From Ostreococcus lucimarinus (lineage: Eukaryota): a DNA stretch of 64,000 nucleotides. Shown in pieces: positions 7,082-64,000 of the stretch. Each line of letters opens with the position of its first letter. The first letter of the stretch is position 1. The notes under the pieces are model-generated. The model was not told the DNA's origin. It ran no database searches and was given only the letters and a program-made list of their open reading frames with translations. The stretch lies in the NCBI GenBank assembly GCA_000092065.1, contig CP000585.1; one strand, 5' to 3'. The position numbers were made by a program, and so were the translations under genes.

Positions 7082-7147
7082 AATGTAACAACACGACACC
7101 TACATCGCGGCATCGCCATTCATCAGTCTTTCACTCTTCGCTCGCGA

Positions 7148-7204
7148 ATTGTTCGCGTTCGCGTTCGCGTTCGCGTTCGCGTTCGCGTTCGCGTTCGCGT
7201 TCAT
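7148..7204. repeat. (GTTCGC)n hexanucleotide microsatellite, about 9 copies
   Basis: Read directly as gttcgcgttcgcgttcgc.... It lies in the putative Piezo 5' flank. Its translation gives the FAFAFAFA artefact ORF 7149..7622. Confidence 0.9.
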
Positions 7205-26355: not shown

Positions 26356-26767
26356 TTCCGCCCGTCTTTCTCGCCGAGAAGGAGTGCGTTTTTTTTTCGA
26401 AGGGACAATTGAAATTTATCGACCACTTCGTTTAGCACGAAGTTTATTAGGGCAAACGATGGATTGGGTCGTCCGCTTTCTCGTCCGATCGAGCAAGCGC
26501 TTTCGAGTCATCGTTCGTCAATCGATTTAATTATGATGCATCACAAACACAGTTTTCGGTTCGTTCGCGTTCGCTTTTTCGTCGAGGTTTCTTGAAGTAA
26601 ATATTGATTGCAGAATTCTATGTGTGCAATTAATCAACGCAACGCGGCGCATCATTACGATGCCCGCGCCGTCACTTCTCGCTAGGGAAGTGCGAGCCAC
26701 AAACGCTCGGCGGAAGATCGAACGTCCTCGACGCGTATGTTTAGGCCAAAACTTGCGCCGGCTTGAC

Positions 26768-28357
26768 TTAGGCGACGGCGTCGAAGTCAACCGGGTCGGA
26801 CTTCCAGATGAGGAAGACGAACACGGAAACCAATTGAAGGGCAGCGATCGGGAAGAACAAGGAGTACGCCCAGTTGCCGCCGGTCATGGAAAGGAAAAGA
26901 CCGGTGAAGAAGGTGGAAAGAGTCGACGCGATGGCCGCCGCCGTGTTGGTGACGCCCAACATGATGGACGCGTACTTCGGCGAAAGGTCTTGGTGACCGC
27001 AGAACAAACCAGTGCGGATGAACGCGGCGAAGCCGAAGGTGACGGACAGGAGACCGACAACCATGCCGATGGTTTGGTTCGTCACCGCGGCCACCGGGGT
27101 GGCGTTCACGATCAAGCCAATCATCGTGAGCGTCACGGCGCCGACGCCAAAGCAGAGCGTCTGCGAGCCCTTGCGAATTTGCGTTCGCGTGAGCTTCTTC
27201 TTCGCCTCGAGTTCACCGGCGAGTGGGGCGATGAGCGCGGTCACGATGACGGTGGACAAGTAAGGAAGAATGGAGAGGAAAGACGACTTGGACAAAGTCA
27301 CGCCCATGGCGCTCGCCAAGAAGGACGGCAACCACGCGAGCAAGCCGTAGGAAAAGTAGTTCCACGTAAAGTGCGCGACGGTGAGCGCCCAAAACTGCGG
27401 GTTGCGCACAAAGGCGGCCCACGGGATGGAGAGACCCTTCTTAGCGCCGGTGGTTTCGACTTCCTTCATGTCCGTGGAGGAATCGCGCATGTAGGAGATG
27501 AACCACCACGCGCCCCAGAAGAAGCCGAGGGCGCCGAACAAGTAAAAGACGGCGGCCCAGCCGCCGAGGTGGAAGATGATCGGCGGCGCGATGAGCAAAC
27601 CCAACAACGAGCCGACGTCGAGACCGCCGAAGGCGGAGGTCACGGCCTTCGATCGCTGGCTCGGCGGAACGCCCTTCGCCAACACGCCGGTCGCCGCGGA
27701 CGGCGCGACGCCTTCGCCGAGACCGACCAAGAATCTCGACGCGAGCAGCGCCGGCATGCCGAGCGCCGCGCACCACGGCGCGATGAGCGTACCGAACGAC
27801 CAGAGCATGACGCCCCAGAACAAGACGGCTTTACCGCCGTACTTACTCGCCAACCACCCACCCGGGATCTGCGTGAACGAATAACCCCAGAAGAACGCGG
27901 ACGCGACCAAGCCCTTTTGCGTCGCCGTCCACCCGAACGACTCCGCCATCGGCACGATGGCCACCGACATGTTCACCTTGTCCAAGTTACACAGCACGAA
28001 CGCGATGAACAGCGCGAACACCATCCCCCATCGCTTCTTTTGCCCTCCCTCGGTCATATCGAACACCTCTTCCTCCGGCGGATCGTTCGGGTTGATCTCG
28101 ATCGCCCCGCCCCCCGCGCGTCTCGCCGCGCGCGCCGCGCGCTTTTGCCCTAAGCCGATCGCCGATCGCGTCTCTCGCGCGCTTTTCGCGCCCACCGTCG
28201 ACGCGCGCGAGGCGCGCGCCCCCTCACATCGCGCGATCGTCACCGTCTCCGCCCGCATCGCCCGCGCGCGCGTCCCTCGTCGTCGCCTCGTCGTCGTCGT
28301 CGTCGCCCGCGCCGTCGCGTTCGCCATCGCCGTCGCGTTCGCCATCGCCGACATCAT
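26768..28357 (-). CDS. MFS anion:cation symporter, PHT4/SLC17-like Na/phosphate transporter, plastid-targeted
   Basis: 529 aa. The N-terminus carries an MANATA tandem repeat and an Arg-rich presequence. It has 12 TM segments. MFS motifs include GGWLASKYGGK and SRFLVGLGEGVAPSA. Confidence 0.8.
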   Translation of the reverse strand: MMSAMANATAMANATARATTTTTRRRRGTRARAMRAETVTIARCEGARASRASTVGAKSARETRSAIGLGQKRAARAARRAGGGAIEINPNDPPEEEVFDMTEGGQKKRWGMVFALFIAFVLCNLDKVNMSVAIVPMAESFGWTATQKGLVASAFFWGYSFTQIPGGWLASKYGGKAVLFWGVMLWSFGTLIAPWCAALGMPALLASRFLVGLGEGVAPSAATGVLAKGVPPSQRSKAVTSAFGGLDVGSLLGLLIAPPIIFHLGGWAAVFYLFGALGFFWGAWWFISYMRDSSTDMKEVETTGAKKGLSIPWAAFVRNPQFWALTVAHFTWNYFSYGLLAWLPSFLASAMGVTLSKSSFLSILPYLSTVIVTALIAPLAGELEAKKKLTRTQIRKGSQTLCFGVGAVTLTMIGLIVNATPVAAVTNQTIGMVVGLLSVTFGFAAFIRTGLFCGHQDLSPKYASIMLGVTNTAAAIASTLSTFFTGLFLSMTGGNWAYSLFFPIAALQLVSVFVFLIWKSDPVDFDAVA

Positions 28358-28730
28358 CGTCGCGCGCGTCGCGCGTTTTGACGCCCGCGGTCCGGTGCGC
28401 CGTCGCGCGTTCGAACGCCGTTCGATCGACGGTCTCGCGAGTCGGGTCGATCGCGATTCGCACGTCGCGCGCCGTCGTCTCGCGTCGCGTCGCGTCGATC
28501 GCGCGATCGCGCGATCCGCCGCCGGCGCGCCGAGCCGTTCGAACGCGCGTTTCAGTACACCTAAACCCTATACTTTTTTATGTATTTCGCGCGCGCGTCG
28601 TGATCTTTGATGCGGTCGAACAGGCGTCGAAGGCGACGATGCGAGACGACGCGAGACGACGCGGCGTCGCGGTCGGTCGCGCGCGGCGATCGGCGTTCGC
28701 GACGTCACTCGACGGGCGACGACGACGACG

Positions 28731-29201
28731 ATGATGATGGCGATGACGACGACGACGACGACGTCGATGAACGCGGGACGACGACGAGACGCGAGGACGT
28801 CGTTCGGACGCGCGACGACGACGCGGGCGACGCGGGCGACGCGCGCGACGACGACGACGACGACGGCGTTCCTGAACTTTGGCGGGAACAGGGCCGCCGC
28901 GGGGGGGGCGGTGGACGCGACGCCGTACGTGTGCGTCGACTGCGGGTACGTGTACAGGGGGGGGGACTTTAAGAAGTTGCCGAACTCGTACCGGTGCCCG
29001 ACGTGCAACGTCGGGAAGAATCGATTCAAGGCGCAGGGAGGGTCGTCGATGCTGGCGCAAAAGAAGGCGAACAAGGCGGCGTTTCGGGCGAGACGCGAGG
29101 CGGCGAGCAAGGGAGGGAAGGCGACGAGCGGACGCGAGGCGTTGAAGCAAAAGATGATGGACGCGCAGGCGGAGAAGGATAAAAAGCGCGGGTGGTTTTA
29201 A
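28731..29201 (+). CDS. Rubredoxin-like domain protein with an organellar presequence and a Lys-rich C-terminal tail
   Basis: YVCVDCGYVY...LPNSYRCPTCNVGKNRF matches the CxxCG...CPxCG rubredoxin knuckles. The N-terminus is Thr/Arg-rich. Confidence 0.55.
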   Translation: MMMAMTTTTTTSMNAGRRRDARTSFGRATTTRATRATRATTTTTTAFLNFGGNRAAAGGAVDATPYVCVDCGYVYRGGDFKKLPNSYRCPTCNVGKNRFKAQGGSSMLAQKKANKAAFRARREAASKGGKATSGREALKQKMMDAQAEKDKKRGWF

Positions 29202-29299
29202 ACGTCGATCGAACGGACGCCGAGGCGCGAAAATCGAAGCGCTTCTCGCTTTTAATTAAAGACCTCTTCTACTCGAGCGCGCGACGATCGTCGTCTCGT

Positions 29300-51557: not shown

Positions 51558-51813
51558 CTACGGTGTCGTCTATCGATCGTCGTGCACACGGTCGAGGCGT
51601 TCGGGTGCGTGCGATCGGTCTACGGGTTTCTCGATCGACGCCTCACGCGTCGCCGTCTCGCCTCGTCTCGTCCTCGTCGTCGTCGCGTGGCGCGTCGTCG
51701 TCTGACGCGTCGGTCTCGAAAGTTCAAACGAACGAACGTCCGCGCGAATTTCGCCGCGCGCGAGGGTTTACGAGTGCTTTACGGGTGCTTGTTGAATAAA
51801 CGTGGTTTTCTAT

Positions 51814-51867
51814 ATCGTGCGCAAATTTCTCCTAAATCGTATCGTGCGCAAATTTCTCCTAAATCGA
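51814..51867. repeat. 27-bp tandem duplication (2 copies, 26/27 identical) spanning the ChlD stop codon and last three codons
   Basis: atcgtgcgcaaatttctcctaaatcgt occurs at 51814-51840 and again at 51841-51867. The ChlD stop cta (minus TAG) is at 51859-51861 inside copy 2. Copy 1 lies in the 3' UTR. Confidence 0.85.
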
Positions 51868-54129
51868 CTTGGCTTCCGCCATTGCCGAAGCCGTCGCCGC
51901 CGCAATCTCTCTCTCGGTACCGTTCGGCAAGTAGTAGTACTTGCCTTGGGCGTTTTGGGCGAGCTTCTCGGCGGTGCCAGACGAAAGGAACTTGTTTTCG
52001 GTGTCAATGACGAGCACCGACATACCGGCGGCGCCGATTCTCGCCGCCGTGTCAGCCACTTCCTGTTCGAGCTCTTCGTTCGTGGGCTTCTTGGCGTCGG
52101 GGCCGAGATACTCCGGATCTCGTTGCGACTTGTTGATGGACACGTTGGCGCGACCGTCGGTGAGGCACACAATCATGACGCGTCCGACGTCTCCCGTGGA
52201 CATGGCGTTGAGTCCGACGCGCGCCGCGACGGACAACCCGTGCGCTAAGGGGGAACCACCACCGCACGCCATGGTGTCGAGACGGTTTCTCGCCATCGCG
52301 ATCGATCGCGACGGCGGCAAGAGCACTTCAGCTTCGTCACCTCGGAAAGGGACGATGGACACCATGTCGCGGCTTTGGTACGAGCTTTCCAAGATTGAAA
52401 GTGCGGCGCCCTTCGCGCCTTGCATTCTGTTCAACGCCATCGAACCGGAGGCATCGACGAGGAAAATGACCAATGCACCGGATTTACGCGCGAGCTTCTT
52501 CGCTCGCATGTCACCCTTTTCGACATAAACCTTCTTCTTCTCCGCGTTGGGATCGCGCTCGCGTCGAGCGCTTTGGTACGGAGCAGCGGCGCGCAACGTC
52601 GCGTCAACCGCCAAACGAATCGTCTTACCCTTGGGTAAAATGGGCTTAATATAGCGACCACGATCGGTGGAGAAAATGACGCTCTTCGAACGACCGGAGC
52701 GGCCGCCTTGTCTGTTGGTTTGTTGCGCGAACTGAGTCACATCCTTGTCGAGGATGACGCCCTCGGCGTCAAAGATGAACTCCTCCGGAACGTCCGGAAT
52801 ATCGTCCTCTTCTTCCTCGTCTTCCTCGTTCTCTTCCTCGTTCTCTTCATCTTGGTCTTCGTCTTCCGCGTTATCTTGCGGCGGCGGCGGTGGCGGCGGC
52901 GGTTCCTGCATGTCGTCTTCATCCGGCGGCGGCGCGTCTTGCAAAATATCAGAGCGCGGTACGATAACCAATCGCACGGCTTCCTTCAAGTCGTCAGCGT
53001 TCACCTTGGATCGACCGTCGAGTGCGGCGAGTGCCTTGGCCGCCTTGACGGCGAAAAGTTCGGCGCGATGACCTTGAATCTGACCGCGAATGGACTCGCG
53101 CACCAAGTACTCGACTTGATCTTGCGAAATCGTGCAATCCTTCAACCACTCGCGCGCCAAGATGATGTTCGTCTTGATACCTTCCGTCGCCTCTTCCACG
53201 CTCTTCACCGAGTTTTCGGCCGCGTTTTGGAAGTTCATCGCTTGGCTAACCGCCTCGACGCGGTCCTCAAATGTCAACATCTGATCCGCCGAGAGCGTCA
53301 CCGCGATGCGGTCCAACAGGTGCTCGCGAAGGTTACCCTCCTCCGGGTTAAACGTCGCGATCAAAAGCGGCTTACACGGGTGCTTGAGCGTGATGCCTTC
53401 GCGCTCGACGACGTTTTCACCCTCGGCAAGCACGGAAAGCAACAAGTTGGCGACCCCGTCGTCGAGGAGGTTGATTTCGTCGACATAAAGGATGCCCCTG
53501 TGCGCCTGCGCCAACAGCCCGGGTTGGAAAATCGTCTTCCCTTGCTTCATGGACTCTTCGATGTCGACCGTACCGATCAAACGATCTTCCGTCACTCCGA
53601 GCGGGAGCTGCACGAACGGCGCGTCGCGGATGATCGTCTCCACGTTCCCGTCGGCGTTCCTCGTTACCTTTTCGCTCAACCCCTCCTCCCACTCATCCGG
53701 CTTGGACGGGTCGGCGTTGCAATACGAATCCTTCACGCACTCGATCGGCGGTAACAGCGCGTGCAAACCGCGAGCCATGATGGATTTCGCCGTTCCTCGT
53801 CGTCCCGAGATCGCGATCCCTCCCAACGTCGGGTCGATCCCTCCCAAAAGCAGCGCCGACTTGATCTTTTCCTGCCCGATCACCGCCGCGAGCGGGAACG
53901 TCTGGCGCATGGTGCTCTCCTCCTTTTCGACCTTCATGTCTTGTTCCATCTGCATCACCTCCTTCATGCGCTGTTCGAGTTCGGACTCCGACGCTTCATC
54001 CGCCACCGCCGCGCGCACGACGCGTCGAGGCGTCGCGCGCGCGCGCGCCGCGCGCGCGCCCGCGCGCGAGGTCTTCGTCTGGCACACGCGAGACGCGGGA
54101 CGCGCGGTGGCGGGCGTTCGCGCGAGCAT
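51859..54129 (-). CDS. CHLD: Magnesium chelatase subunit D (ChlD), plastid
   Basis: 756 aa. The AAA+ N-terminal half reads [40 protein letters not shown] poly-Pro/acidic linker reads [34 protein letters not shown]. The C-terminal VWA domain has the MIDAS motif DASGSM. It has an N-terminal transit peptide. Confidence 0.9.
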
Positions 54130-54284
54130 GGCGCTTCGCTTCGATCAAGCGACGCACGTGTGCGTGTACGTCCGACAGCGCGCGCGGTCGCGAGCGTCGC
54201 GGTCTGCGACGCGCGACGACGACGACGACGACGACGCGCGACGATGGGTCGGGCGTTTGGATAAAATCGACGCGCTCGGGGAGG

Positions 54285-54350
54285 GAGAAATGTATCATCA
54301 CGTATTATAAGTACATTTATGTCTATGTAAAATAATCAATCGTGTGATAA
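54285..54350. promoter_or_regulatory. AT-rich island in the ChlD promoter / helicase 3' flank
   Basis: atgtatcatcacgtattataagtacatttatgtctatgtaaaataatcaatcgtgtgataacg sits in a sequence that is otherwise about 70% GC. It contains TATA-like elements and a plus-strand TGTAA motif. Confidence 0.4.
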
Positions 54351-54371
54351 CGTGGTCTATCCAAGATTCCA

Positions 54372-57300
54372 CTACGCCGCGAGCCAGGTGCCGAGCAAGC
54401 CGTCGAGGACAATCTTCGAGTCTCTCTTCGCGAAGCCGGCGTCGCGGCCTCTTCTGCCCGCTTGTACGCAGGATGGACATCCTGACGCACAACCACAGCT
54501 TTTCAAAGTCTCCAGCGCCCGTCGCCACAATTCTTCGCAATTCTCAAACACCTTTTCGGCGATGCCGATGCCGCCCGGCGTCGTGTCGTATAAGAAAATA
54601 CGCGCGGCGGCGGGTCCGGTTTCATTCGGGTTCGGGAGCTGCGTAGCACCGGCGACGTCTCTCGTATCACACATCGCGATACTCGCGACGAGTCCACCGC
54701 ACACGTTCGCGACCCCATTCGTCGCTTCCCGGAGCGCGTCTGCTGCGACGCGGCGATTGACGACTTCATCGGGTAGATTGAAAAACACCGCTCGAGTGCG
54801 GTACTGCGCCGCAATCACGGGCGTCTTCCAAATCTCTTCGTGGAGCAATTTTCCAGTTTTATGATCACTCCTGGCGTACCCGAGTACTTTTTCAGAGACG
54901 ACGATGTCGCCGAGATGGACACGCGTGGCGGCGCAATTCTTCGAAACCAATTCGCCGACGCCTTGCTCTGGGTCTGGCGCGAGAACTTCAACTTCCGTCC
55001 GTTCGCGCGTCTGCGTCGTTTCGAACTTTTCGTAAGGTGCCGCGTGCGCGATACGGTTTTCAATGTCAAGCCGCTGTACAATGAAAGCCTTCCGTCGAGC
55101 GATGAATACGCAACCCACGTACAGTCTCGCGAGAGCGCGATGGCCTTCAATTTCTTCAACCAACGACCCGCTAGGGGACTCGAGTAGTTTCCAAGCTTCG
55201 CCGCTCTGCACGCCGCGTAGCATGACAGATCTGTGCGGATATACGTTCGGCGCGCACTCGATCGTCTTTGTCGTTTTGTTGAAAACGCACGTGCGCGCCG
55301 ACGTCGACGAGCCCAACGCGCGCTTAATGGCGAGATGCAAAGGCGCCTTGAAGTTTGGCGCAATCGACGTCATTCCCGGCGCCGCATCATCGCGACTCGC
55401 CGTGAACATGACTGCGTCATCACCTCGCAAATCAAGCGCGACTTCTTTCGCCGCACACGGCAAATGTATCTCTAAAATTGCAGAATTGTGTGGGTCGACG
55501 AGCGCCTCTTCGCTCTGTCGCTCAAACAATTCACCAGGCCTGGTGACGTAGTGGTAGTCCAGAGGACGCTCGCACGCAATGACGATGGCGACAGATGCCC
55601 CTCGGCGACGTCCCGCACGACCAGCTTGCTGCCACATTGCCGATGCCGTTTCAGGAACTCCCACGTGCACGGTTGCGTCCAACGATCCGACGTCGATGCC
55701 CATCTCCAAAGCGCTCGTGCACACAAGCGCGCTGATTTCGCCGTTCTGCAAACGACGTTCTAGTTTTCTTCGTTCAATTTGATTGTATCCCGCTCGATAA
55801 GAGTCGACTTTTGAGGCCAATTCTGGGTTCTTTTTCGCTAAATTTGCTTTTGCGTCGCGCGAAACCGTCTCCGCCAACGTTCGCGCGCTGACGAAGACGA
55901 GACAGCGTATTTTGCTTCGCACTAAATCGGCAACGATATCTGCAGCTTCGGCATAGGGCGAACGACGCTGACGTTGCGTGCCCGAAGCATCCTCACCCGA
56001 AAGACTCGCAAGATTTGGTTGCTGAAACCACGTCGCCGCGCTCATCCCGCCCGCTTCCGACTCGGGCGGTTGCCACAAAATCATCGCCTTCTCACCACTC
56101 GGCGCGCCGGAGATATCCACGCACACTGGCGTGCGCGTCGTAAGGCGTCGGATGTGCTGAACTGGGTTAGAGATCGTCGCCGACGTACAGATGAACTCTG
56201 GTCTTGTCGTCGGGTCCCACGACGCGCACACGCGCGAAAGTCGCCGAAGAACGTTGGCGACGTGACTGCCACTCACGCCCGTGTGCGTGTGCGCCTCGTC
56301 CAAGACTATGTACCGCAACGACCCCCAAAACTTTTTACCCCACGTCCTGTGACCTGGAAGCATGGCGTGATGCAATGAATCGGGATTGGTCAAGATGATT
56401 TGCGTGCCTTGAATTTTTATCTGTTTCTTCGCCGCCTCGTCGGTGTCGCCGTCGCACACCGCCAACTTTGCGTCGGCGAGGCGCTCTAATCGTTTCATGT
56501 CGATGTCTGGAAAGTTCAACTTCATGAACTCTTTCTTCGCCTTCGCTGTCGCATCACCGTGCTTCTTCATCCGTTCATCGATTTCGTACTTGAACTCTTG
56601 CGCCGCTTGCACGACGCGGCGCATCTTGTGTAACTGGTCGTTCGCGAGAGCCTTCAACGGAAACATCAGCAGCGCCTTGGACTGCTTCGACCTTTCGTCC
56701 ATGATCGCTTCGAAAATCGGCACCACGTAGCATATCGATTTCCCCGAAGCCGTGGGCGTCGAAACGACAACCGAGCGCCCCGAGCGCGCGGCTTTAATCG
56801 CCGCGCTTTGATGCGAATAGAGGCGCGTCGTTCCGCAACGAGCCAGTACCGCGGCGAGGGTGCCATCGACCTCAAAGTCCGGCGGTGATGTGTTGTCCTC
56901 TTCGCGTCGATCGAGCCATTTCACGCCCACGCACTGCGGTTTCGCCGACATGTTTGACACGAACGCGCGCACGTCGCCGTCTTCGACGAGCACGCGGGCC
57001 TTGGACTTTTTACCGCCCGTCGACTTTGTCGTTCCGCCGTACGATGTTTCGGGCGTCGACTCGCACGCGTTTGCGCTCGGTCGGGGCGTCAACACGCCGT
57101 CCGGTACCGCCGACACCTTCCTTTTCTTCGCAGCCTCGAACGCGATGTGAAAAATCTCGTCGTCGTCGTCGTCGTCGTCGTCAAGACTTAACGGTCGTGT
57201 AGTCGTCGCGCCGTCGTCCACGCGAGCGCGAGAACGCGCATCGCCGTCGTCGTCGCCACCGCGCATCGTCGCCACCTCCCTAGCGGCGATCGACGCCGCC

Positions 57301-57545
57301 GGCGACGCGCGCGGTTGTGGCGCACCGTTGGCCCCGAGGATGTGGGTATAGCGCATCCGAGGCTCCGTGCCGGCGTCGGCGCCGGCGCTCGAACAACCGT
57401 AGACACGTTCGTAGCTGTCGCCGTAATAAAATATAGTCTTATGAGCGTGCTCGTCGCGGTCACGCGCTACCTCGCCGCGAAGTCGTTCCGTCGCCGCGCC
57501 CTGGGCGCGGCGCTTCGCCCACAAGGTGACGCGCTCGCCACTCAC
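54372..57545 (-). CDS. DEAD/DEAH-box superfamily-2 helicase with a C-terminal DUF1998/MrfA-type zinc-finger domain (HRQ1/RecQ4-like). The start is uncertain.
   Basis: 1057-aa ORF. Motif I is VVVSTPTASGKSICYVVPI. Motif II is YIVLDEAHTHTG. Motif III is TSATISNP. Motif VI is QQAGRAGRRG. The C-terminus has ...LKSCGCASGCPSCVQ. An acidic run DDDDDDDDE lies near the N-terminus. Confidence 0.65.
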   Translation of the reverse strand: MSGERVTLWAKRRAQGAATERLRGEVARDRDEHAHKTIFYYGDSYERVYGCSSAGADAGTEPRMRYTHILGANGAPQPRASPAASIAAREVATMRGGDDDGDARSRARVDDGATTTRPLSLDDDDDDDDEIFHIAFEAAKKRKVSAVPDGVLTPRPSANACESTPETSYGGTTKSTGGKKSKARVLVEDGDVRAFVSNMSAKPQCVGVKWLDRREEDNTSPPDFEVDGTLAAVLARCGTTRLYSHQSAAIKAARSGRSVVVSTPTASGKSICYVVPIFEAIMDERSKQSKALLMFPLKALANDQLHKMRRVVQAAQEFKYEIDERMKKHGDATAKAKKEFMKLNFPDIDMKRLERLADAKLAVCDGDTDEAAKKQIKIQGTQIILTNPDSLHHAMLPGHRTWGKKFWGSLRYIVLDEAHTHTGVSGSHVANVLRRLSRVCASWDPTTRPEFICTSATISNPVQHIRRLTTRTPVCVDISGAPSGEKAMILWQPPESEAGGMSAATWFQQPNLASLSGEDASGTQRQRRSPYAEAADIVADLVRSKIRCLVFVSARTLAETVSRDAKANLAKKNPELASKVDSYRAGYNQIERRKLERRLQNGEISALVCTSALEMGIDVGSLDATVHVGVPETASAMWQQAGRAGRRRGASVAIVIACERPLDYHYVTRPGELFERQSEEALVDPHNSAILEIHLPCAAKEVALDLRGDDAVMFTASRDDAAPGMTSIAPNFKAPLHLAIKRALGSSTSARTCVFNKTTKTIECAPNVYPHRSVMLRGVQSGEAWKLLESPSGSLVEEIEGHRALARLYVGCVFIARRKAFIVQRLDIENRIAHAAPYEKFETTQTRERTEVEVLAPDPEQGVGELVSKNCAATRVHLGDIVVSEKVLGYARSDHKTGKLLHEEIWKTPVIAAQYRTRAVFFNLPDEVVNRRVAADALREATNGVANVCGGLVASIAMCDTRDVAGATQLPNPNETGPAAARIFLYDTTPGGIGIAEKVFENCEELWRRALETLKSCGCASGCPSCVQAGRRGRDAGFAKRDSKIVLDGLLGTWLAA

Positions 57546-57563
57546 CGACGCCCGAAATTTTAC

Positions 57564-58637
57564 ATGAGCGATCGCGTCGAAGTTTTCGTGTGCGGAGGCA
57601 CCGGTCTGGTGGGATCGGCGTTGGTGACGCAGCTGCGCGCGAACGCGGCGTCGCGCGCGAACATCAAGCTCGTCGGCTTTTGTTCGTCAACCAAAATCAT
57701 CGCGTTCGAGGGCGAGCAGAAAGAAAGCGTCGTTCGCGAGAGCGCGGACAGACGAGTGCCGAGCGACGATGAAATCATGCAGTGCTGCTCCTCGCCAAAC
57801 GCCACCGTGTGTGTTGTGGACGCCACGTCGAGCGAAGACGTGTCGGCGTTGTACGCCCCGTGGCTCGAGCGTCGCTGGCATGTGGTGACGTGCAACAAAA
57901 AGGTAAATAGCGGCAATCTCGAGTATTACACTCGGTGCATGGACGCGACTAAAAATGGAGGAGGGAAGTGGTTTGTCGAAGCGACGATTGGCGCCGGTTT
58001 ACCCATCGTCAGTACGCTCCGAACGCTCGTCGCGACGGGAGACGAAATCGAATCCGTGCAAGGCATTTTTTCTGGAACGATGAGCTTCTTATTCAACACT
58101 TGGGACGGCGAAAGCGCATTTTCGGAGACCGTAGCGCTCGCAAAGGCGGCTGGGTACACCGAACCGGACCCACGCGAGGATCTCAACGGTTTAGACGTCG
58201 CGAGAAAAGTCGTCATCGCCGCGCGCGAGTGCGGCGTCGCGCTCAGCCTGGACGACGTCGTGGTGCAATCAATGGTACCCTCCGAGCTTGCGTCGTGCTC
58301 CGCGGATGAATTTCTCGAACGGTACGCTGAAAATGACGCGGCGATGGCTCAGGCCGCGGCGAACGCTTCGAAGAAAGGATGCGTTCTTCGCTTCGTCGGT
58401 CACGTCGACGTCAAGGCGCGCTCGGCATCAGTTCGTCTCGTGGAATTCGCCAAGGCGCATCCCTTCGCTACGCTTTCGGGCGCTGATAATATTTTCGAAA
58501 TCAAAACGGCGCGTTACGGTCCCACGGGAGGATCGACCCCGTTGATCGTTCGAGGTCCTGGCGCCGGCGCCGCGGTCACGGCTGCCGGGGTGTTCGGCGA
58601 CATCGTCGGATTGGCAAAGAATTTGTCGCTCGCGTAG
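57564..58637 (+). CDS. Homoserine dehydrogenase
   Basis: ORF 57315..58637. ATG 57564 (MSDRVEVFVCGGTGLVGSA) was verified. The NAD-binding motif is GxGxVG. The catalytic region reads EATIGAGLPIVSTLRTL...GIFSGTMSFLFN. The C-terminus reads PLIVRGPGAGAAVTAAGVFGDI. Confidence 0.8.
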   Translation: MSDRVEVFVCGGTGLVGSALVTQLRANAASRANIKLVGFCSSTKIIAFEGEQKESVVRESADRRVPSDDEIMQCCSSPNATVCVVDATSSEDVSALYAPWLERRWHVVTCNKKVNSGNLEYYTRCMDATKNGGGKWFVEATIGAGLPIVSTLRTLVATGDEIESVQGIFSGTMSFLFNTWDGESAFSETVALAKAAGYTEPDPREDLNGLDVARKVVIAARECGVALSLDDVVVQSMVPSELASCSADEFLERYAENDAAMAQAAANASKKGCVLRFVGHVDVKARSASVRLVEFAKAHPFATLSGADNIFEIKTARYGPTGGSTPLIVRGPGAGAAVTAAGVFGDIVGLAKNLSLA

Positions 58638-58729
58638 GGCTCGCGTAGGGCTCGCGTAGGCACTAGATACATCGTCGGATTGGCAAAGAATTTGTCGCTC
58701 GCGTAGGGCTCGCGTAGGGCTCGCGTAGG
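58601..58729. repeat. 60-bp unit tandemly duplicated with a 9-bp spacer (69-bp period) across the HSD stop codon. Each unit holds three ctcgcgtagg sub-repeats.
   Basis: catcgtcggattggcaaagaatttgtcgctcgcgtagggctcgcgtagggctcgcgtagg occurs at 58601-58660 and identically at 58670-58729. The HSD stop TAG is at 58635-58637 in copy 1. Confidence 0.9.
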
Positions 58730-58805
58730 AGATATAACTATGCATCACAAACACGAATATTTGCGCTAGCGGTCTCTCGATCGATTGTTTTCCATTCGTT
58801 GATAT

Positions 58806-59861
58806 TCAGTCGGCGACGCGCTTTTCGAATTCTCGCTCGAGGATACGAGTTAAGAATCCTTGGCTCAGCATATCCCTCACCGCCACCCCACACTCGCTCG
58901 ACGCTTTAAAAACATCCATGACCGCCGGCGGCGAGATGGGAAGGAACAGCTCGGCGAGCGCGCGCACTGAATTTGCCACGCGGGATATATTTTCGCGTTG
59001 AACCGGAGACACTTCATCGCCGTGAAGCTCGCGCAGCTCGTCCACGACATCACTCGGCTCGCGGCGAATCTCCGACTCGCGCGGTGCGGTGGCGCCGCTC
59101 GGCGCACCAACCCAAATGAAACCGTTGCACCCGAGTAAGATTTCCACGTCGTTCGCTTCAGCGGCGACGCCGTCGTGAAACTCGTCCATCTTAAGCCTGT
59201 GAAAATGCTGAGGCAATCGGCGCACTAAATTCGCAGTCACTCGCACGAGCTGACCATTCTTCAAGCAACCGTACTTCAAGCTTCGCGTGTGCAGCGCGGC
59301 GGCGCCATCGGCGTACACGCTCTGCACTTCGGCGCTCACGACGTCGTCTTCGGCGTACAGCATGCGCATGTTCAACTCATCCACATCGTTCCGTCGTCTC
59401 TGCACGTTCCCGGGCAAATGCACCGCACTGAGCTGCAATACCCCATTCTGTCGCGCGTTCACGTCTAAAATCCAACGCTTACCAGATATCTCTTTCACGC
59501 GCCCAAGCACGACGTCACCCGTTTCTGGCGCATAGCGCGCTTTCAACGCTCGCACTGAGACGAGTTTATTCACGCGTTCAACCACGCCCGCGGTCGTGGC
59601 CACTAACCCACGATCATCGTCGCCGTCACCGTCGGTTCCATTGTCCTCTGCGATCGGTCGCGTGCCGTGTCCTCGCAAGAAACCTTCAGACGAATCGATC
59701 CCTGGGATGCGTTCGCCCGGGCTCACGAACGCGCGCGCGGACGAGCTCGCCGTCGCGCATTGCTCCAGCGCGCGCTTCGCGCGCTTGAACGCGCGCGTCG
59801 TCGACGCGTCGGCGTCTCGAAAACTCACCACCATGCGTCCACGGACGCGCGCGACCGACAC
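58806..59861 (-). CDS. Exosome complex component RRP4 (S1 + KH domains)
   Basis: 351 aa. The S1 segment reads GDVVLGRVKEISGKRWILDVNARQNGVLQLSAVHLPG..RRR..DEL.MR. It continues ...AEVQSVYADGAAALHTRSLKYGCLKNGQLV and the KH-like LLGCNGFIWVG. Confidence 0.75.
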   Translation of the reverse strand: MSVARVRGRMVVSFRDADASTTRAFKRAKRALEQCATASSSARAFVSPGERIPGIDSSEGFLRGHGTRPIAEDNGTDGDGDDDRGLVATTAGVVERVNKLVSVRALKARYAPETGDVVLGRVKEISGKRWILDVNARQNGVLQLSAVHLPGNVQRRRNDVDELNMRMLYAEDDVVSAEVQSVYADGAAALHTRSLKYGCLKNGQLVRVTANLVRRLPQHFHRLKMDEFHDGVAAEANDVEILLGCNGFIWVGAPSGATAPRESEIRREPSDVVDELRELHGDEVSPVQRENISRVANSVRALAELFLPISPPAVMDVFKASSECGVAVRDMLSQGFLTRILEREFEKRVAD

Positions 59862-59924
59862 TGAAAGCTGTCGAGCGCGGCATTCCGTCCCGGCGGCGGC
59901 AGTGCGAGTCGCGTCTTCGCGTCT

Positions 59925-61226
59925 ATGACGCGCGCGAGCGCGGTGAACAAACCGGATTCGGACGACGAAAGCGATGACGATCGCGAAGACGGAGACGCGC
60001 CCGCGCCCGCGCGCGCGCCCGCGCCGCGCGACGTCGTCGAGGGCAAGGCTGCGCGAGCGGCTCGTAAGCGGGCGGCGAAGCGCGCGAGAGACGCGGCGTC
60101 GCGGGCGCTCGCGAATGCAGACGATGAGGACGTCGACGATGTGAACGTGAATGACGCAGACGCGTCGCGCGTGCGCGCGTGCAAGCTTTGCGCAAGGTCG
60201 TTACCCCTTCGAGCGTTTCCGCCTCGACAGCTTCGCAAGGCGAGGAGCGCGTGCGCCGAGTGCTGCGCGACGCAAGCAGAGAAGGATGCTCCCGCTCCGG
60301 AACGGAAGCGAAAGATGACGAAACGCGAGAAACTAGCCGAAGCGATTGAGGCGAGAAAAAAGAAGAGGAGCGAGAAGGTGGCAGAAGAGCCCACGGCTGA
60401 GGCGAAGAACGAAGAGCGAAGAGCGAAGAAAGTCGCTGCGGCAAAAGCTGACGACGAGAGCGAGAGCGAGAGCGAGAGCGAGTCTGCTTCTTCGAGCGGT
60501 GAAAGCTCATCTTCGTCGAGTTCATCATCATCTTCTAGCTTAGACGAAGAGGCGCCGAAGAAGCCAAACGACGACCGAGCCTTGACGGCCGAAGAACGCG
60601 AGCTGCGAGCCCGACAAGTCTTCGTAGGCGGTATTCCCTTCAACAAGACAGAAGAAGACATCGAAGAGGCATTCATGGATGATACGCTCACCGTCGAAAG
60701 CGTCGATTGCATGACTTTTCCGGATACCGGGCGTTTCCGCGGTATCGCAATAGTCACCTTCGCCTCGGCGAACATCGCGAACGAGGCTTTGCGATGGCAC
60801 GACACCGAATGGGACGGAATGGTACTCGTCGTGAAACCGTACGAGCCAAAAACACCTGAAGCGCCCAAACCTAAGCTTAATGTGGGTAAAGTTGAAGGTC
60901 AACACATCGCCTTTGTGGCAAACTTGGATTACAGCGTCACGGAGGACATTCTTAGAGAAACGTTTTCTCCAAGCGACGGCGCTATTACGGATGTTCGCAT
61001 GGGTGTGGACAAGGAAACCGGCGATTTCCGTGGCTACGCGCACATTGAATTCGCTAGTGATGGCGATTTAGAGCGTGCGTTGCTAAGAGACGGAGAAGAA
61101 CTCGTCGGTGGACGGGCAATGAAAGTGACGTACGCGACGGCGCGGAAGCAAACCACGACAAAACCGGAACGGAAATACGACAAAGGTAGACCGAGGTTCA
61201 AGGGAGCGGCGCGGCGGAAAAAGTGA
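59925..61226 (+). CDS. Nucleolin/NSR1-like RNA-binding protein: acidic/Ser-rich and K/E-rich N-terminus plus two RRMs
   Basis: 433 aa. RRM1 is QVFVGGIPFNKTEED...RFRGIAIVTFAS. RRM2 is HIAFVANLDYSVTEDILRETF...DFRGYAHIEFAS. There are poly-Ser and ESESESES tracts. Confidence 0.65.
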   Translation: MTRASAVNKPDSDDESDDDREDGDAPAPARAPAPRDVVEGKAARAARKRAAKRARDAASRALANADDEDVDDVNVNDADASRVRACKLCARSLPLRAFPPRQLRKARSACAECCATQAEKDAPAPERKRKMTKREKLAEAIEARKKKRSEKVAEEPTAEAKNEERRAKKVAAAKADDESESESESESASSSGESSSSSSSSSSSSLDEEAPKKPNDDRALTAEERELRARQVFVGGIPFNKTEEDIEEAFMDDTLTVESVDCMTFPDTGRFRGIAIVTFASANIANEALRWHDTEWDGMVLVVKPYEPKTPEAPKPKLNVGKVEGQHIAFVANLDYSVTEDILRETFSPSDGAITDVRMGVDKETGDFRGYAHIEFASDGDLERALLRDGEELVGGRAMKVTYATARKQTTTKPERKYDKGRPRFKGAARRKK

Positions 61227-61540
61227 CTAGGATTTTCTGAGCTGATCGCGAACTAGTCGCGGACTAATCGACTAGGTAGTAACTAAGTAGCAAGTACTGT
61301 AGCTTTTGCGAATACTAGAATACTATGGAGAGTTTCGGATGCTTGAGCGCGGCTTTCTGCGCGGCGGCGACGATGGCTGGATCCGACCACGTGCCAATCC
61401 TCTTGATGAGCTTTTTCGTGTAGCACGAGCGATAAATCGCCCACTGGATGATGCACAGCGCTACGCCGACGGCGATGGCGACGCCGGCGACCACGTCTTT
61501 CTGCAGAGGGCAGCAGTCGTAATATTTATCGGGAATATTA

Positions 61541-63373
61541 GTGCAGCACCATTTTCAAGCTTTTTTTCTGTCGTGCGTTTTTCCCGGTCGTTCTTTCGGC
61601 ACTGCGCGTCGCTCGTTGCCGTCCATGGTGACGAAGGCCGGGCCGCCCGACCCGTGCGACCAATCGTCGTCGTCCGCGTCGTCGTCGGCGTCGTCGTCCT
61701 GCTTTGAAATTCTCGGCCTCGACGGCGCGGCGGCGGACGTCACGCGCGAGGATGTCCGACGGGCGTTTCGAAAACGCCTCGTGCGTGCACATCCCGATCG
61801 CAACAGCGGGTGCTCGCGCGCGTACGACGCGTTGTGCGCGGCGCGAGACGCGGCGTACGACATGGTCGATCGTAAGGACTTGTTAGCGTGCGCGGCGAGG
61901 TACGATTGGCGGGCATCGATGCGGAAAGACGAACGGGCGAACAAACGCGCGGCGGGCGTGGCGAAGCGCGAGGAGCTGAAGACGACGCCGACGAGTCCGC
62001 GTCGACGTTCGGCGGTGAATACATCTTCGTCTTCGATAAACAAGACGAAATTCGGCCCGCACGAATCGCGCGTGACGGTGATGACGGCGCGAGACGATGG
62101 TGTGGTGGCGACGGGCGAGGCGAGCGGACGCGTCAGCGTCTGGCGAGCCGACGGCGCGCGCGTCGACTCGTGCGACGCGCCGTCGACGACGGACAAAACG
62201 AACGATGCGGTATCTATATTGCAATTTAATCGTCATCATGGACTGGTGGCGACGTACGTGACGAGTAAGCCGAGGTTTTGGACCGTCGGCTGCGACACGA
62301 TGTCCGCCGCCGCCGCGACGGAGGTGGACGCACACTCGCGAAGAATAACCGCCGCGAAGTGGTTTGAAGGCGTCGAAGGCGCCGAGATTTGTGACGTCTT
62401 GGTCACCGCAGCTTTAGATGGCACGGTATTCGTGCAAACGTTTTTCGACGGCGCGCTCGGTCCCTCGGCGCTCGCGTCACGCGATGGATTTCGCGCCGTC
62501 AAAGCCGTGGACGCGCTCGCGACGAGCGCCGACGGCGGCGCGTTCGTTGTCACGGACGTCGTCGGAAATTTCAAACTCTGGCGCGTTCGTCTAGAAAATT
62601 CGAAAACATCGCTTACTGTGGAGCCAATCACGAACATCGTGACTTGGAATGGGTTCGGCGGCGTGTGCTTTGCTCGCTTGGCGCGCTCGCCGATGGCGCC
62701 CGACTCGCTTCGATTACTTACAACGTTCACCGATGCAAGCGCTAGACAGTCGCGCGTGTTGGAGTGGTCGGTACCGCATCTCGAAAACGGTGCGGTCGCA
62801 GACGTGCGTGGGTACGTCGGCGCAATACCGAGCGCGAATGGAGTCATACGAGGCGTGGCGAGCGATTTTCTCACCATCGCTCGCTCGAAGGAAGACGACG
62901 ACGACGACGACGACGCCGACGACGACGACGACGAGATGTACCTCCTCGCCGCCAACGACTTGATTTTTGCCGTCGATGCGCGCGCTCGGTGCGTACTATA
63001 TACCATGGACTCCGCGCACTGTCGCGCGCTTCATCCATCGACGACAATTCCCGGCGCCTTTGTCTCGTGCCGCGTCGCCGCCGCTCGCGACGGGGTCGGT
63101 TTCGACGTCTGCGCGCTCGACGATGGTCGAATTATCGCAAAGCTCGATTTCACCGCGGACAAGTTCTTCGATGATGTTGATGACGTCACCGATGGTCGAA
63201 TTATCGCAAAGCTCGATTTCACCGCGGACAAGTTCTTCGATGATGTTGATGACGTCACCGACGCCACCGACGTCAACGCCCAGCGCGCGGCGTCTTCAAT
63301 CCTCGTCGCCTCTTCCTCGTCTCAAGTCCTGCTCCTCGCGCGACGCAGCACCGTCGTCGCGGTGCGTCTGTGA
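61541..63373 (+). CDS. DnaJ (J-domain) protein with a C-terminal beta-rich/WD-like region. The likely start is about 61625 (MVTKAGPPD).
   Basis: The J domain reads CFEILGLDGAAADVTREDVRRAFRKRLVRAHPDRN (HPD motif). A long beta-strand-rich region follows. The coding sequence contains the 2 x 69-bp duplication listed separately. Confidence 0.6.
   Translation: MQHHFQAFFLSCVFPGRSFGTARRSLPSMVTKAGPPDPCDQSSSSASSSASSSCFEILGLDGAAADVTREDVRRAFRKRLVRAHPDRNSGCSRAYDALCAARDAAYDMVDRKDLLACAARYDWRASMRKDERANKRAAGVAKREELKTTPTSPRRRSAVNTSSSSINKTKFGPHESRVTVMTARDDGVVATGEASGRVSVWRADGARVDSCDAPSTTDKTNDAVSILQFNRHHGLVATYVTSKPRFWTVGCDTMSAAAATEVDAHSRRITAAKWFEGVEGAEICDVLVTAALDGTVFVQTFFDGALGPSALASRDGFRAVKAVDALATSADGGAFVVTDVVGNFKLWRVRLENSKTSLTVEPITNIVTWNGFGGVCFARLARSPMAPDSLRLLTTFTDASARQSRVLEWSVPHLENGAVADVRGYVGAIPSANGVIRGVASDFLTIARSKEDDDDDDDADDDDDEMYLLAANDLIFAVDARARCVLYTMDSAHCRALHPSTTIPGAFVSCRVAAARDGVGFDVCALDDGRIIAKLDFTADKFFDDVDDVTDGRIIAKLDFTADKFFDDVDDVTDATDVNAQRAASSILVASSSSQVLLLARRSTVVAVRL
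63121..63258 (+). repeat. Perfect 69-bp in-frame tandem duplication inside the DnaJ gene, duplicating 23 aa (DGRIIAKLDFTADKFFDDVDDVT)
   Basis: cgatggtcgaattatcgcaaagctcgatttcaccgcggacaagttcttcgatgatgttgatgacgtcac occurs at 63121-63189 and again at 63190-63258. Confidence 0.9.
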
Positions 63374-63845
63374 ACGAATGGTGAAAGCGTCGAAACCTAG
63401 AAACCTAGAAAGAGGTGAAACTGAATTTGAAAGATATAGAATGCAAAGCGATTCACCCACGTCGCCGTCGTCGTCCCGCGTCGTCTCCCAGCGCGCGTCG
63501 CCGCACTCGCCTCCCTGAAACTAGGGCTAGAAACTAGGGTTAGCAGTTTCTCTGGAACATGACGCTTTTGCCGCCCTGGAAGTTGCGCGAGTAAAGGGGT
63601 CACCAAAACCACTACACTGGCGGTCGACGACGTTGGAATTTTGCGTACACGCAGGAAACACGCATTTGCATCTGTGTACGCGCGCGTTTCGCGAACCTCT
63701 GGGTGCCGGCGGCGACCCGGACCTTCACGTCGTCGCGGGCGTAGGCCGCGGTTTGGGTTTTTTTGGAAATGTGTGATGGTGGTTTTGGGTTGAGACTACG
63801 TTAGTGAGGGCGGGGTAAACTAGGGTTTGGAGGACTAGGGTTCGG
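63374..63845. repeat. Short subtelomeric region with degenerate telomere-like motifs (aacctag, ctagggctag, aaactagggttag, ggtttgg) and no recognisable gene
   Basis: Read directly. Motif density rises toward the perfect array. Confidence 0.6.
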
Positions 63846-64000
63846 GTTTAGGGTTTAGGGTTTAGGGTTTAGGGTTTAGGGTTTAGGGTTTAGGGTTTAG
63901 GGTTTAGGGTTTAGGGTTTAGGGTTTAGGGTTTAGGGTTTAGGGTTTAGGGTTTAGGGTTTAGGGTTTAGGGTTTAGGGTTTAGGGTTTAGGGTTTAGGG
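63846..64000 (+). repeat. Telomere: (TTTAGGG)n, about 22 perfect copies, running off the window
   Basis: The perfect tttaggg array has the G-rich strand 5'->3' toward the end, as expected for a right chromosome terminus. This is the Arabidopsis/green-algal-type telomere repeat. Confidence 0.95.

Follow-up and report, generated by a model that had tools for sequence, protein, structure and literature searches.

The window, a stretch of 64,000 nucleotides analysed here at its full length, forms the right-hand end of a chromosome of 847,696 bp in Ostreococcus lucimarinus CCE9901; it terminates in a (TTTAGGG)n telomere, with degenerate telomere-like repeats from about position 63518. The genome is compact, with approximately 75% coding sequence and about 100 nt between genes at their 3′ ends. 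Scanning the window for Rfam families and tRNAs returned no matches. Three genes in its terminal part carry a short duplication (sites 1, 2 and 3), all at a distance of 12.2 kb or less from the telomere, and the features of this part are as follows.

51813–51839: site 1 copy a, a 27-bp unit in the ChlD 3′ UTR, the distal copy in the direction of the gene
51840–51866: site 1 copy b, the final 8 nt of the ChlD CDS with its stop codon, plus 19 nt of 3′ UTR
51859–54129, minus strand: CDS of Mg-chelatase subunit D (ChlD), 756 aa, Pfam Mg_chelatase/VWA, clustering with XP_001418124.1
54358–57351: block B, an Hrq1-like DEAD/MZB helicase
57351–61326: block C, containing HSD, RRP4, an RRM protein and site 2
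57441–58637, plus strand: CDS of homoserine dehydrogenase (HSD), a 398-aa model with the C-terminus ..LAKNLSLA* conserved in Ostreococcus
58600–58660: site 2 copy 1, 61 nt, comprising 23 nt of 3′ UTR after the last 12 HSD codons and their stop codon
58661–58668: site 2 filler, 8 nt, CACTAGAT, between the two copies
58669–58729: site 2 copy 2, 61 nt, wholly within the 3′ UTR of HSD, which is convergent with RRP4 (stop at 58806)
61625–63373, plus strand: CDS of a J-domain/β-propeller-like protein, 582 aa, identical to XP_001417886.1
63121–63189, plus strand: site 3 copy 1, 69 nt or 23 codons
63190–63258, plus strand: site 3 copy 2, 69 nt, with CGA after it, the same 3 nt with which the unit begins
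63836–64000, plus strand: telomere, (TTTAGGG)n, up to the last nucleotide of the window

The three perfect duplications reported in an earlier note on this DNA all exist as described there, with coordinates one base off at two of the sites. In a census of the 64 kb for perfect repeats of at least 20 nt, lying within 150 nt of each other and with a period above 12, sites 1–3 were the sole perfect repeats of unique sequence; the other matches were the telomere or micro- and minisatellite units taken several at a time. Under the same criteria, 30 Markov shuffles yielded zero such repeats, and TRF at a score of at least 90 found no further large-period perfect array in the window. The duplicated units are 27, 61 (+8) and 69 nt long, and each occurs as exactly two head-to-tail copies of unique sequence.

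At site 1 the unit TATCGTGCGCAAATTTCTCCTAAATCG is found at 51813–51839 and again at 51840–51866, which retains the 27-bp duplication previously noted and shifts it by one base from 51814–51867. The ChlD stop codon (51859–51861, minus strand) lies, as noted before, in copy 2 as counted on the plus strand, and the junction between the copies has 0 bp of microhomology. At site 2 the period is 69 as previously given, made up of 61 + 8 nt and not of 60 + 9, and the HSD stop codon TAG (58635–58637) is indeed located in copy 1. Each copy also contains the three TAG-bearing units that had been noticed, measured here as three 11-nt units of GCTCGCGTAGG (spanning 58628–58660 in copy 1) that place TAG in all three frames. 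The junction has 1 bp of microhomology plus the filler. A search for a template of the filler, covering 400 bp on either side, gave nothing of 6 nt or longer; the one match was the 5-nt AGATA, formed by the last 4 nt of the filler and the next base and identical to the 5 nt directly after copy 2. Site 3 is the 2 × 69 nt in-frame duplication described within the J-domain CDS (63121–63258); it repeats the 23 residues DGRIIAKLDFTADKFFDDVDDVT, has 3 bp of microhomology (CGA) at the junction and ends 113 nt before the stop codon. The period of 69 bp common to sites 2 and 3 is therefore present as noted, but it is composed of 61 nt plus an 8-nt filler in one case and of 69 + 0 in the other, and is most simply a coincidence.

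The window was compared with independent metagenome assemblies of O. lucimarinus, approximately 99.8% identical to it, whose contigs derive from many independent samples and from the MEGAHIT, SPAdes and JGI pipelines. Single-copy alleles are known for all three sites and differ from the window by precisely one unit, that is, by 27 nt at site 1, by 69 nt including the filler at site 2 and by 69 nt at site 3; CACTAGAT is missing from every single-copy allele of site 2. The copy number is always 1 or 2 (17–20 contigs per site), with no third copy in any contig. Site 1 is duplicated in 15 contigs and single-copy in two (L007 and L039), site 2 is duplicated in 10 and single-copy in 10, and site 3 is duplicated in none and single-copy in 11; since the contigs are consensus paths, these counts do not stand for true haplotype frequencies. 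The different allele frequencies at the three sites imply separate events. In Ostreococcus tauri, used as the outgroup, the HSD stop codon carries one CTCGCGTAGG unit and the terminal 15.7 kb contains no comparable duplications, which indicates that the single-copy state is ancestral.

The possibility that the repeats are errors of assembly or finishing in the reference genome, also raised in the earlier note, was examined against these alleles. It fails at sites 1 and 2, where identical junctions recur base for base in many independent MEGAHIT, SPAdes and JGI assemblies beside single-copy contigs. At site 3 the duplication is seen in no other source: all 18 environmental variants of the J-domain protein are single-copy, exact look-ups of the duplicated protein in other assemblies found none, and a scan of JGI metagenome contigs for the site-3 junction gave 0 matches. 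The last is a weak zero given the thin JGI coverage of this end, gauged by the five contigs that match a 31-nt exact probe for site 2, approximately 4.5 kb from site 3. The 138-bp repeat fits within one Sanger read, and an artefact at this site is unlikely; as an explanation of the repeats in general, artefact is very improbable. The duplications at sites 1 and 2 are real and polymorphic in nature, that at site 3 is very probably real, and all three have the junction anatomy described above.

The earlier note had also considered very recent events, and this may hold for site 3, which was not found outside the reference strain. Both copies of site 3 in the reference carry a synonymous A where 11 of 11 environmental contigs have C, so that the duplication arose later than this lineage-specific SNP. 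Known from the reference assembly alone, it is private to the sequenced strain among the sources compared. Sites 1 and 2, on the other hand, are not very recent, since their alleles are widespread in many samples and the site-2 copies have already diverged by 1–2 bases in three contigs (L001, L013 and L014); they are common polymorphic duplications, an outcome that the note itself had named as counting against its reading. A comparison of site-2 haplotypes for a single origin had only three informative SNPs, on consensus-path contigs. Polymorphic copy number, together with the short sequence separating the site-2 copies in the manner of a footprint, might suggest minisatellite (VNTR) loci or scars of transposon excision. 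The units are unique, however, and occur only once or twice, arrays of three or more units being absent; the sites have no terminal inverted repeats and three different unit lengths, and no transposon family is known to make target-site duplications of 27–69 nt. An origin of this kind is extremely improbable.

The three repeats are probably independent scars of error-prone repair of DNA breaks, of different ages within the O. lucimarinus lineage. Schimmel et al. 2021 (PMC8355091) describe small tandem duplications arising at breaks with complementary overhangs, which are filled in and then joined by NHEJ; polymerase-theta end joining, which relies on microhomology, serves as the backup. By the most likely route here, one known from plants and animals, a resected break or a pair of closely spaced nicks, one in each strand, would leave complementary overhangs of some tens of nucleotides; both overhangs would be filled in and the now redundant ends joined, doubling the stretch between the nicks and leaving a junction that is blunt or has minimal microhomology or a short filler. 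The observed junctions are all of this type (0 bp, the 8-nt CACTAGAT, and 3 bp of CGA), an anatomy that fits fill-in and end joining and fits replication slippage less well. Each duplication would have persisted by being harmless. In ChlD and HSD, where the duplication starts within the CDS, the first copy would keep the native stop codon, leaving the protein unaltered and the 3′ UTR 27 or 69 nt longer, and in the J-domain protein exactly 23 codons would be added to a weakly conserved C-terminal tail. One copy should be easily lost when the repeats recombine or when replication slips from one to the other, which would keep the sites polymorphic. The repair pathway, the neutrality of the duplications and any link to the telomere are inferred.

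Replication slippage, or microhomology-mediated duplication, in which the nascent strand stalls, pairs again with a short direct repeat further upstream and so copies the interval twice, is rather unlikely for the set as a whole. It would suit the 3-bp CGA repeat flanking site 3, and the array of three 11-nt units already at the HSD stop codon could promote misalignment; microhomology-mediated duplications in Schizosaccharomyces pombe are also similar in size, at 55–92 bp (PMC8639346). Site 1, however, is devoid of microhomology, the 8-nt insertion at the site-2 junction is not a product of simple slippage, and the microhomologies of 0, 1 and 3 bp fall short of a criterion of about 5 bp, those in S. 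pombe being 5–8 bp (PMC8639346). Stable hairpins were likewise not found at the sites. Hairpins or cruciforms were rejected as candidates: the DNA folds no better than shuffled sequence (z-scores of −2.5, +1.1, −0.2 and +1.1), the −2.5 at site 1 reflecting trivial pairing between the copies. Site 3, with its 3 bp of microhomology, would be equally well compatible with slippage or with polymerase-theta joining.

A further option in the earlier note was duplication at the ends of transcripts. Breaks arising from termination, or from collisions between convergent transcription units, would then preferentially duplicate stop regions, and several observations point this way. A stop codon lies within two of the three duplications and shortly downstream of the third; the HSD stop codon has been struck repeatedly, by the threefold 11-nt array and then by the 61 + 8 nt duplication; a 5-nt duplication (TTCCA) is located right at the helicase stop codon in L005; and structural breakpoints cluster at 54358–54384, at and just past this same stop codon. 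The excess at stop codons is weak, however, with three of 44 short perfect tandem repeats touching one where approximately one is expected (four with site 2, which falls outside this 44-repeat census because it is not a perfect tandem). It can be accounted for by survivorship, as in sequence that is about 75% coding a duplication running from the CDS to past the stop leaves the protein unchanged. O. tauri has the same genes and nothing comparable, and no common motif holds up: a motif shared by the units (GCAAA..ATTT, ATCG..) was recognized post hoc, lacks its exact form at site 1 and has about 10 unrelated occurrences in the window against 4 expected. A directed process at transcript ends finds no support here and is highly doubtful.

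The duplications lie in a region that is structurally variable on a larger scale. Twelve independent metagenome contigs carry block C in inverted orientation, the junctions having microhomology of 3 bp or less, and block B is inverted, deleted or duplicated depending on the contig, its breakpoints clustering at 54358–54384 and 57429–57456. The terminal 10 kb includes nested inversions, a 3-kb deletion and a 3.7-kb gene presence/absence difference, on an almost SNP-free background of three non-singleton SNPs in 3.8 kb across 20 sequences (19 contigs and the window). Inverted repeats were considered as the source of the 4-kb inversion, and the sole candidate was the 8-nt pair GCATCCGA/TCGGATGC; at one of the junctions both copies come to lie on the same side, and a crossover within the pair is thereby excluded. 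The duplications, inversions, deletion and presence/absence difference all appear to segregate in many ocean samples at appreciable frequencies, although some of the rearranged contigs, such as L009, L006 or L001, may be assembler chimeras. The occurrence of all three duplications so close to the telomere corresponds to (12.2/64)^3 = 0.007, a figure calculated post hoc, and, three events being so few, a local cause could lie behind their clustering close to the telomere and at the 3′ ends of genes. We tentatively suggest, as a possibility that may well not hold, that the last 10–12 kb are a hotspot of structural mutation of the end-joining type, in which the duplications could mark telomere-associated fill-in by CST-Pol α-primase acting on breaks.

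The effect of the duplications is small, amounting to two longer 3′ UTRs and one protein tail with 23 additional residues, and they may be regarded as routine mutational scars. They can serve as markers, in that small structural alleles of a wild eukaryotic alga are scorable from metagenome assemblies. At this end the gene order of the published reference strain is the minority one, and the strain carries a coding duplication that appears private to it. The duplications also point to a chromosome end of single-copy housekeeping genes whose structure varies far more than its diversity in point mutations would lead one to expect, which would bear on how very compact eukaryotic genomes are rearranged. 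If the hotspot were true, gene-dense chromosome ends of a picoalga abundant worldwide would change in structure much faster than by point mutation.

Structural plasticity of subtelomeres has reportedly been described in a study of Chlamydomonas, as in yeasts and parasites. The O. lucimarinus chromosome end resembles these subtelomeres in that rearrangements and raised divergence are concentrated there. It differs from them in that the junctions are of the end-joining type and do not fall at repeats, and in that single-copy housekeeping genes (ChlD, HSD and RRP4) take the place of multi-copy subtelomeric repeat families. The fission yeast duplications are alike in size, in being reversible and segregating, and in that those that are in-frame or non-disruptive persist; they revert approximately 100 times faster than they form, and they need 5–8 bp of microhomology at both ends, whereas the junctions here have 0 bp, 1 bp plus filler, and 3 bp (PMC8639346). 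According to Schimmel et al. (PMC8355091), the fill-in and NHEJ model had already been indicated by bioinformatic studies of insertions that occur naturally in humans and plants. With the duplications of that class those of O. lucimarinus share two head-to-tail copies of unique sequence, a length of tens of bp, similar junctions and their occurrence as natural insertion polymorphisms. They depart from it in that the pathway is inferred for this alga, and in lying within 12 kb of a telomere beside inversions and deletions. The duplications appear to be ordinary members of an already known class of mutation.

Reading of the sites confirmed, with minor corrections of coordinates, the three perfect duplications described in an earlier note, at the 3′ ends of ChlD (site 1) and of the homoserine dehydrogenase gene HSD (site 2) and within the coding sequence of a J-domain protein (site 3). 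The interpretation offered there proved only partly right. The features concerned are as follows.

51813–51839 and 51840–51866: site 1, two copies of TATCGTGCGCAAATTTCTCCTAAATCG
51859–54129, minus strand: ChlD
58600–58660 and 58669–58729: site 2, two copies of a 61-nt unit separated by the 8-nt spacer CACTAGAT, period 69
58635–58637: HSD stop codon TAG, within copy 1 of site 2
61625–63373: J-domain protein gene (weak DnaJ match, beta-propeller-like body)
63121–63189 and 63190–63258: site 3, two in-frame copies of a 69-nt unit
63836–64000: telomere, with degenerate copies from ~63518

The site 1 unit consists of the final 8 nt of the ChlD coding sequence and 19 nt of 3′ UTR, with the ChlD stop codon lying within the second copy on the plus strand, and the site 2 unit runs from the final 12 HSD codons through the stop into 23 nt of UTR. 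Site 3 repeats 23 residues in frame near the C-terminus of the J-domain protein, and the three bases right after copy 2 (CGA) extend the repeat. Leaving aside the telomere and multiples of micro- and minisatellite units, a k-mer scan of the window for perfect repeats ≥20 nt long and lying within 150 nt yielded these three sites and no others, and no such repeat was found by the same criteria in 30 first-order Markov shuffles.

The window terminates in 23.7 copies of TAGGGTT, i.e. a (TTTAGGG)n telomere, a feature absent from the earlier note. The J-domain protein, duplication included, is 100% identical over 582 aa to XP_001417886.1 of O. lucimarinus CCE9901, encoded on an 847,696-bp record, and ChlD groups with the CCE9901 protein upon clustering. 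The telomere and the protein matches therefore place the window at the right-hand terminus of a chromosome in the published reference genome, and all three sites fall within its last 12.2 kb. The nominal probability that all three would lie in the final 19% of the window is 0.007, a post hoc value for n = 3 events, and the nearby telomere may have a causal role. As a separate observation, window 1–7150, with a G+C content near 0.50 (0.56–0.68 elsewhere), lacks ORFs longer than 175 aa, an unusual feature in such a gene-dense genome, and is bounded by a perfect (GTTCGC)8.7 array at 7151–7202.

The exact ChlD and HSD proteins are present on hundreds of metagenome contigs. Contigs over the chromosome end, drawn from differing samples and assemblers and sharing ~99.8% identity with the window, were retrieved in sets of 9, 5 and 9, two of the last nine being repeats, so that 21 were distinct.

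Copy number at the three sites in environmental contigs
Site 1 (ChlD, 27 bp): two copies in 15 contigs, one copy in 2 (L007, L039)
Site 2 (HSD, 61 + 8): two copies in 10, one copy in 10
Site 3 (J-domain, 69 bp): two copies in 0, one copy in 11

No three-copy allele occurs at any of the sites in the contigs compared. Single-copy alleles of site 2 are shorter by exactly 69 nt, filler included, and the two copies have diverged at 1–2 positions in L001, L013 and L014. Since two-copy alleles of sites 1 and 2 recur in contigs from differing assemblers, these sites are not assembly artefacts, nor are they very recent. Site 3 is single-copy in each of the 18 environmental protein variants extending to the C-terminus, and both reference copies carry a synonymous A where 11 of 11 environmental contigs have C. 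Its junction had no match in JGI metagenome contigs, where this chromosome end is thinly covered, an exact probe from the site 2 unit 4.5 kb away matching only five. The site 3 duplication thus appears to be private to the sequenced strain, or at least rare outside it.

In O. tauri the HSD stop carries a single CTCGCGTAGG and the terminal 15.7 kb contain no comparable duplications, and one copy is therefore ancestral. Taken with the allele counts and copy divergence, this indicates that the three duplications are events separate in time. Around the O. lucimarinus HSD stop the 11-nt unit GCTCGCGTAGG is present three times (58628–58660, again at 58697–58729), placing TAG in all three frames with Leu-Ala codons before each; this array arose there by an earlier expansion. 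A frameshifted environmental variant (P0064) still ends in ..GLA* because of these stops. L034 5725–5740 was compared alongside these window positions.

The chromosome end harbouring the duplications may itself be structurally unstable, which lies outside the earlier finding and is of more interest than the duplications. From 54 kb outward several gene orders exist within the same species, involving a block B (54358–57351, an Hrq1-like DEAD/MZB helicase) and a block C (57351–61326; HSD, RRP4 and an RRM protein); a prime denotes inversion relative to the window.

Segment orders at the chromosome end
A B C D: window and 8 contigs
A B C′ D: junction of 61326 with 57351, 12 independent contigs
A C B′ D: L035, L006
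A D′ C B′: L011, L012
Helicase block deleted: L008
Apparent helicase duplication: L009

Block C has the reference orientation in nine contigs (L001, L002, L037, L039–L043 and L009); L009 contains both junction types and could for this reason be a chimera made by the assembler. In O. tauri, too, the helicase(−)/HSD(+) pair has a subtelomeric position, so the B/C junction of A B C D looks ancestral. The 4-kb inversion (57351–61326; L003–L007, L009–L013, L035) has clean junctions with microhomology of at most 3 bp (TAT/ATA). The helicase gene (54358–57456; L008, L009, L006/L036) is moved and inverted in L006 and L035, and its breakpoints cluster at the stop codon (54358–54384) and at 57429–57456. 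Some contigs (L014 1682–5419; L005 1–370) carry an extra 3.7 kb that separates block C from the J-domain gene (at window 61326–61540). It encodes a ~1000-aa reprolysin/disintegrin-like membrane protease and the N-terminal portion of a Cys-rich membrane protein of 277 aa; the reference lacks the protease and, of the Cys-rich protein gene, has just a truncated 3′ remnant. The protease segment is a gene presence/absence polymorphism. Control contigs over window 8.5–51.8 kb showed no unique-sequence duplication of at least 20 bp, only micro- or minisatellite length changes.

Point divergence from the environmental contigs is ordinary, at 0–3 differences per kb, up to about 61 kb; it climbs only within the last ~1.5–2 kb (62000–63836), from about 1–3 to 11 per kb, and reaches 40–65 per kb beyond 63.5 kb; in block C only 3 non-singleton SNPs occur among 20 sequences (19 contigs and the window). 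This gene-dense end may rearrange by end-joining-type events much faster than substitutions accumulate.

Several further features were observed. An 8-nt tandem duplication, GAATACTA × 2 (61310–61325), adjoins the right breakpoint of the 4-kb inversion in both orientations. Among near-chromosome-length JGI contigs (L031, L032, L006; 837–841 kb), L031 would end at ~54.37 kb and L032 at ~57.47 kb, near block boundaries, if collinearity is assumed in extrapolating the coordinates, and the L006 alignment starts at the boundary at 54358; this suggests that assemblies break at structurally heterogeneous places. L001 (1–3648) matches the window to 60482 and continues into unrelated genes (WD40 protein, enoyl-CoA hydratase); the break (60482–60483), at an AGCGAG microsatellite variable in L012 and L013, reflects a genuine translocation or alternative end, or else chimeric assembly. 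Telomere-like units are polymorphically duplicated (12 nt at 63520 in L003, 8 nt at 63392 in L037). At 26450–29290 one environmental strain (L016/L026, JGI 3300046170) is only 86–93% identical over ~3 kb and above 99% on both flanks, marking a locally divergent segment.

A duplication process acting at transcript ends had also been proposed. On a crude, ORF-based gene map, with ~75% of the window coding, the window has 44 short perfect tandem repeats; a stop codon is touched by 3 of these, the expected number being about 1, and adding site 2, which lies outside the perfect-tandem census, raises the count to 4; the excess is weak. A duplication running from coding sequence across the stop would leave the protein intact, and one inside the coding sequence would have to keep frame and be tolerated. 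Spacing is tight, the convergent HSD and RRP4 stops being only ~100 nt apart in the single-copy allele. Survivorship, i.e. retention where harmless, therefore accounts for the positions, and there is no need for a directed process. The 69-bp period common to sites 2 and 3 is built as 61 + 8 in one and 69 + 0 in the other, and is most simply a coincidence.

The site 1 junction has zero microhomology and that of site 3 has 3 bp. At site 2 the 3′ part of the 8-nt filler, AGATA, equals the 5 nt directly after copy 2, and the surrounding sequence offers no template longer than that. Replication slippage fits less well, as in fission yeast it needs 5–8 bp of microhomology (PMC8639346). Reversion of duplications there is ~100 times faster than formation (PMC8639346), and similarly fast reversion would help sites 1 and 2 stay polymorphic. 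Hairpin folding at the sites and a motif common to the three units were examined and rejected. We consider it probable that each duplication arose independently through the repair of a break. Small tandem duplications have been explained by breaks whose complementary overhangs undergo fill-in on either side before NHEJ joins them, with microhomology-using polymerase-theta joining as a backup, and according to Schimmel et al. 2021 (PMC8355091) bioinformatic work on natural human and plant insertions points to this fill-in/NHEJ model. Here, likewise, fill-in of both sides of such a break, followed by either kind of joining, would yield the duplications; the exact pathway is one that we infer. 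The junction anatomy of all three sites agrees with that of the known small tandem duplications (PMC8355091), and those described here are ordinary members of this mutation class, kept where harmless.
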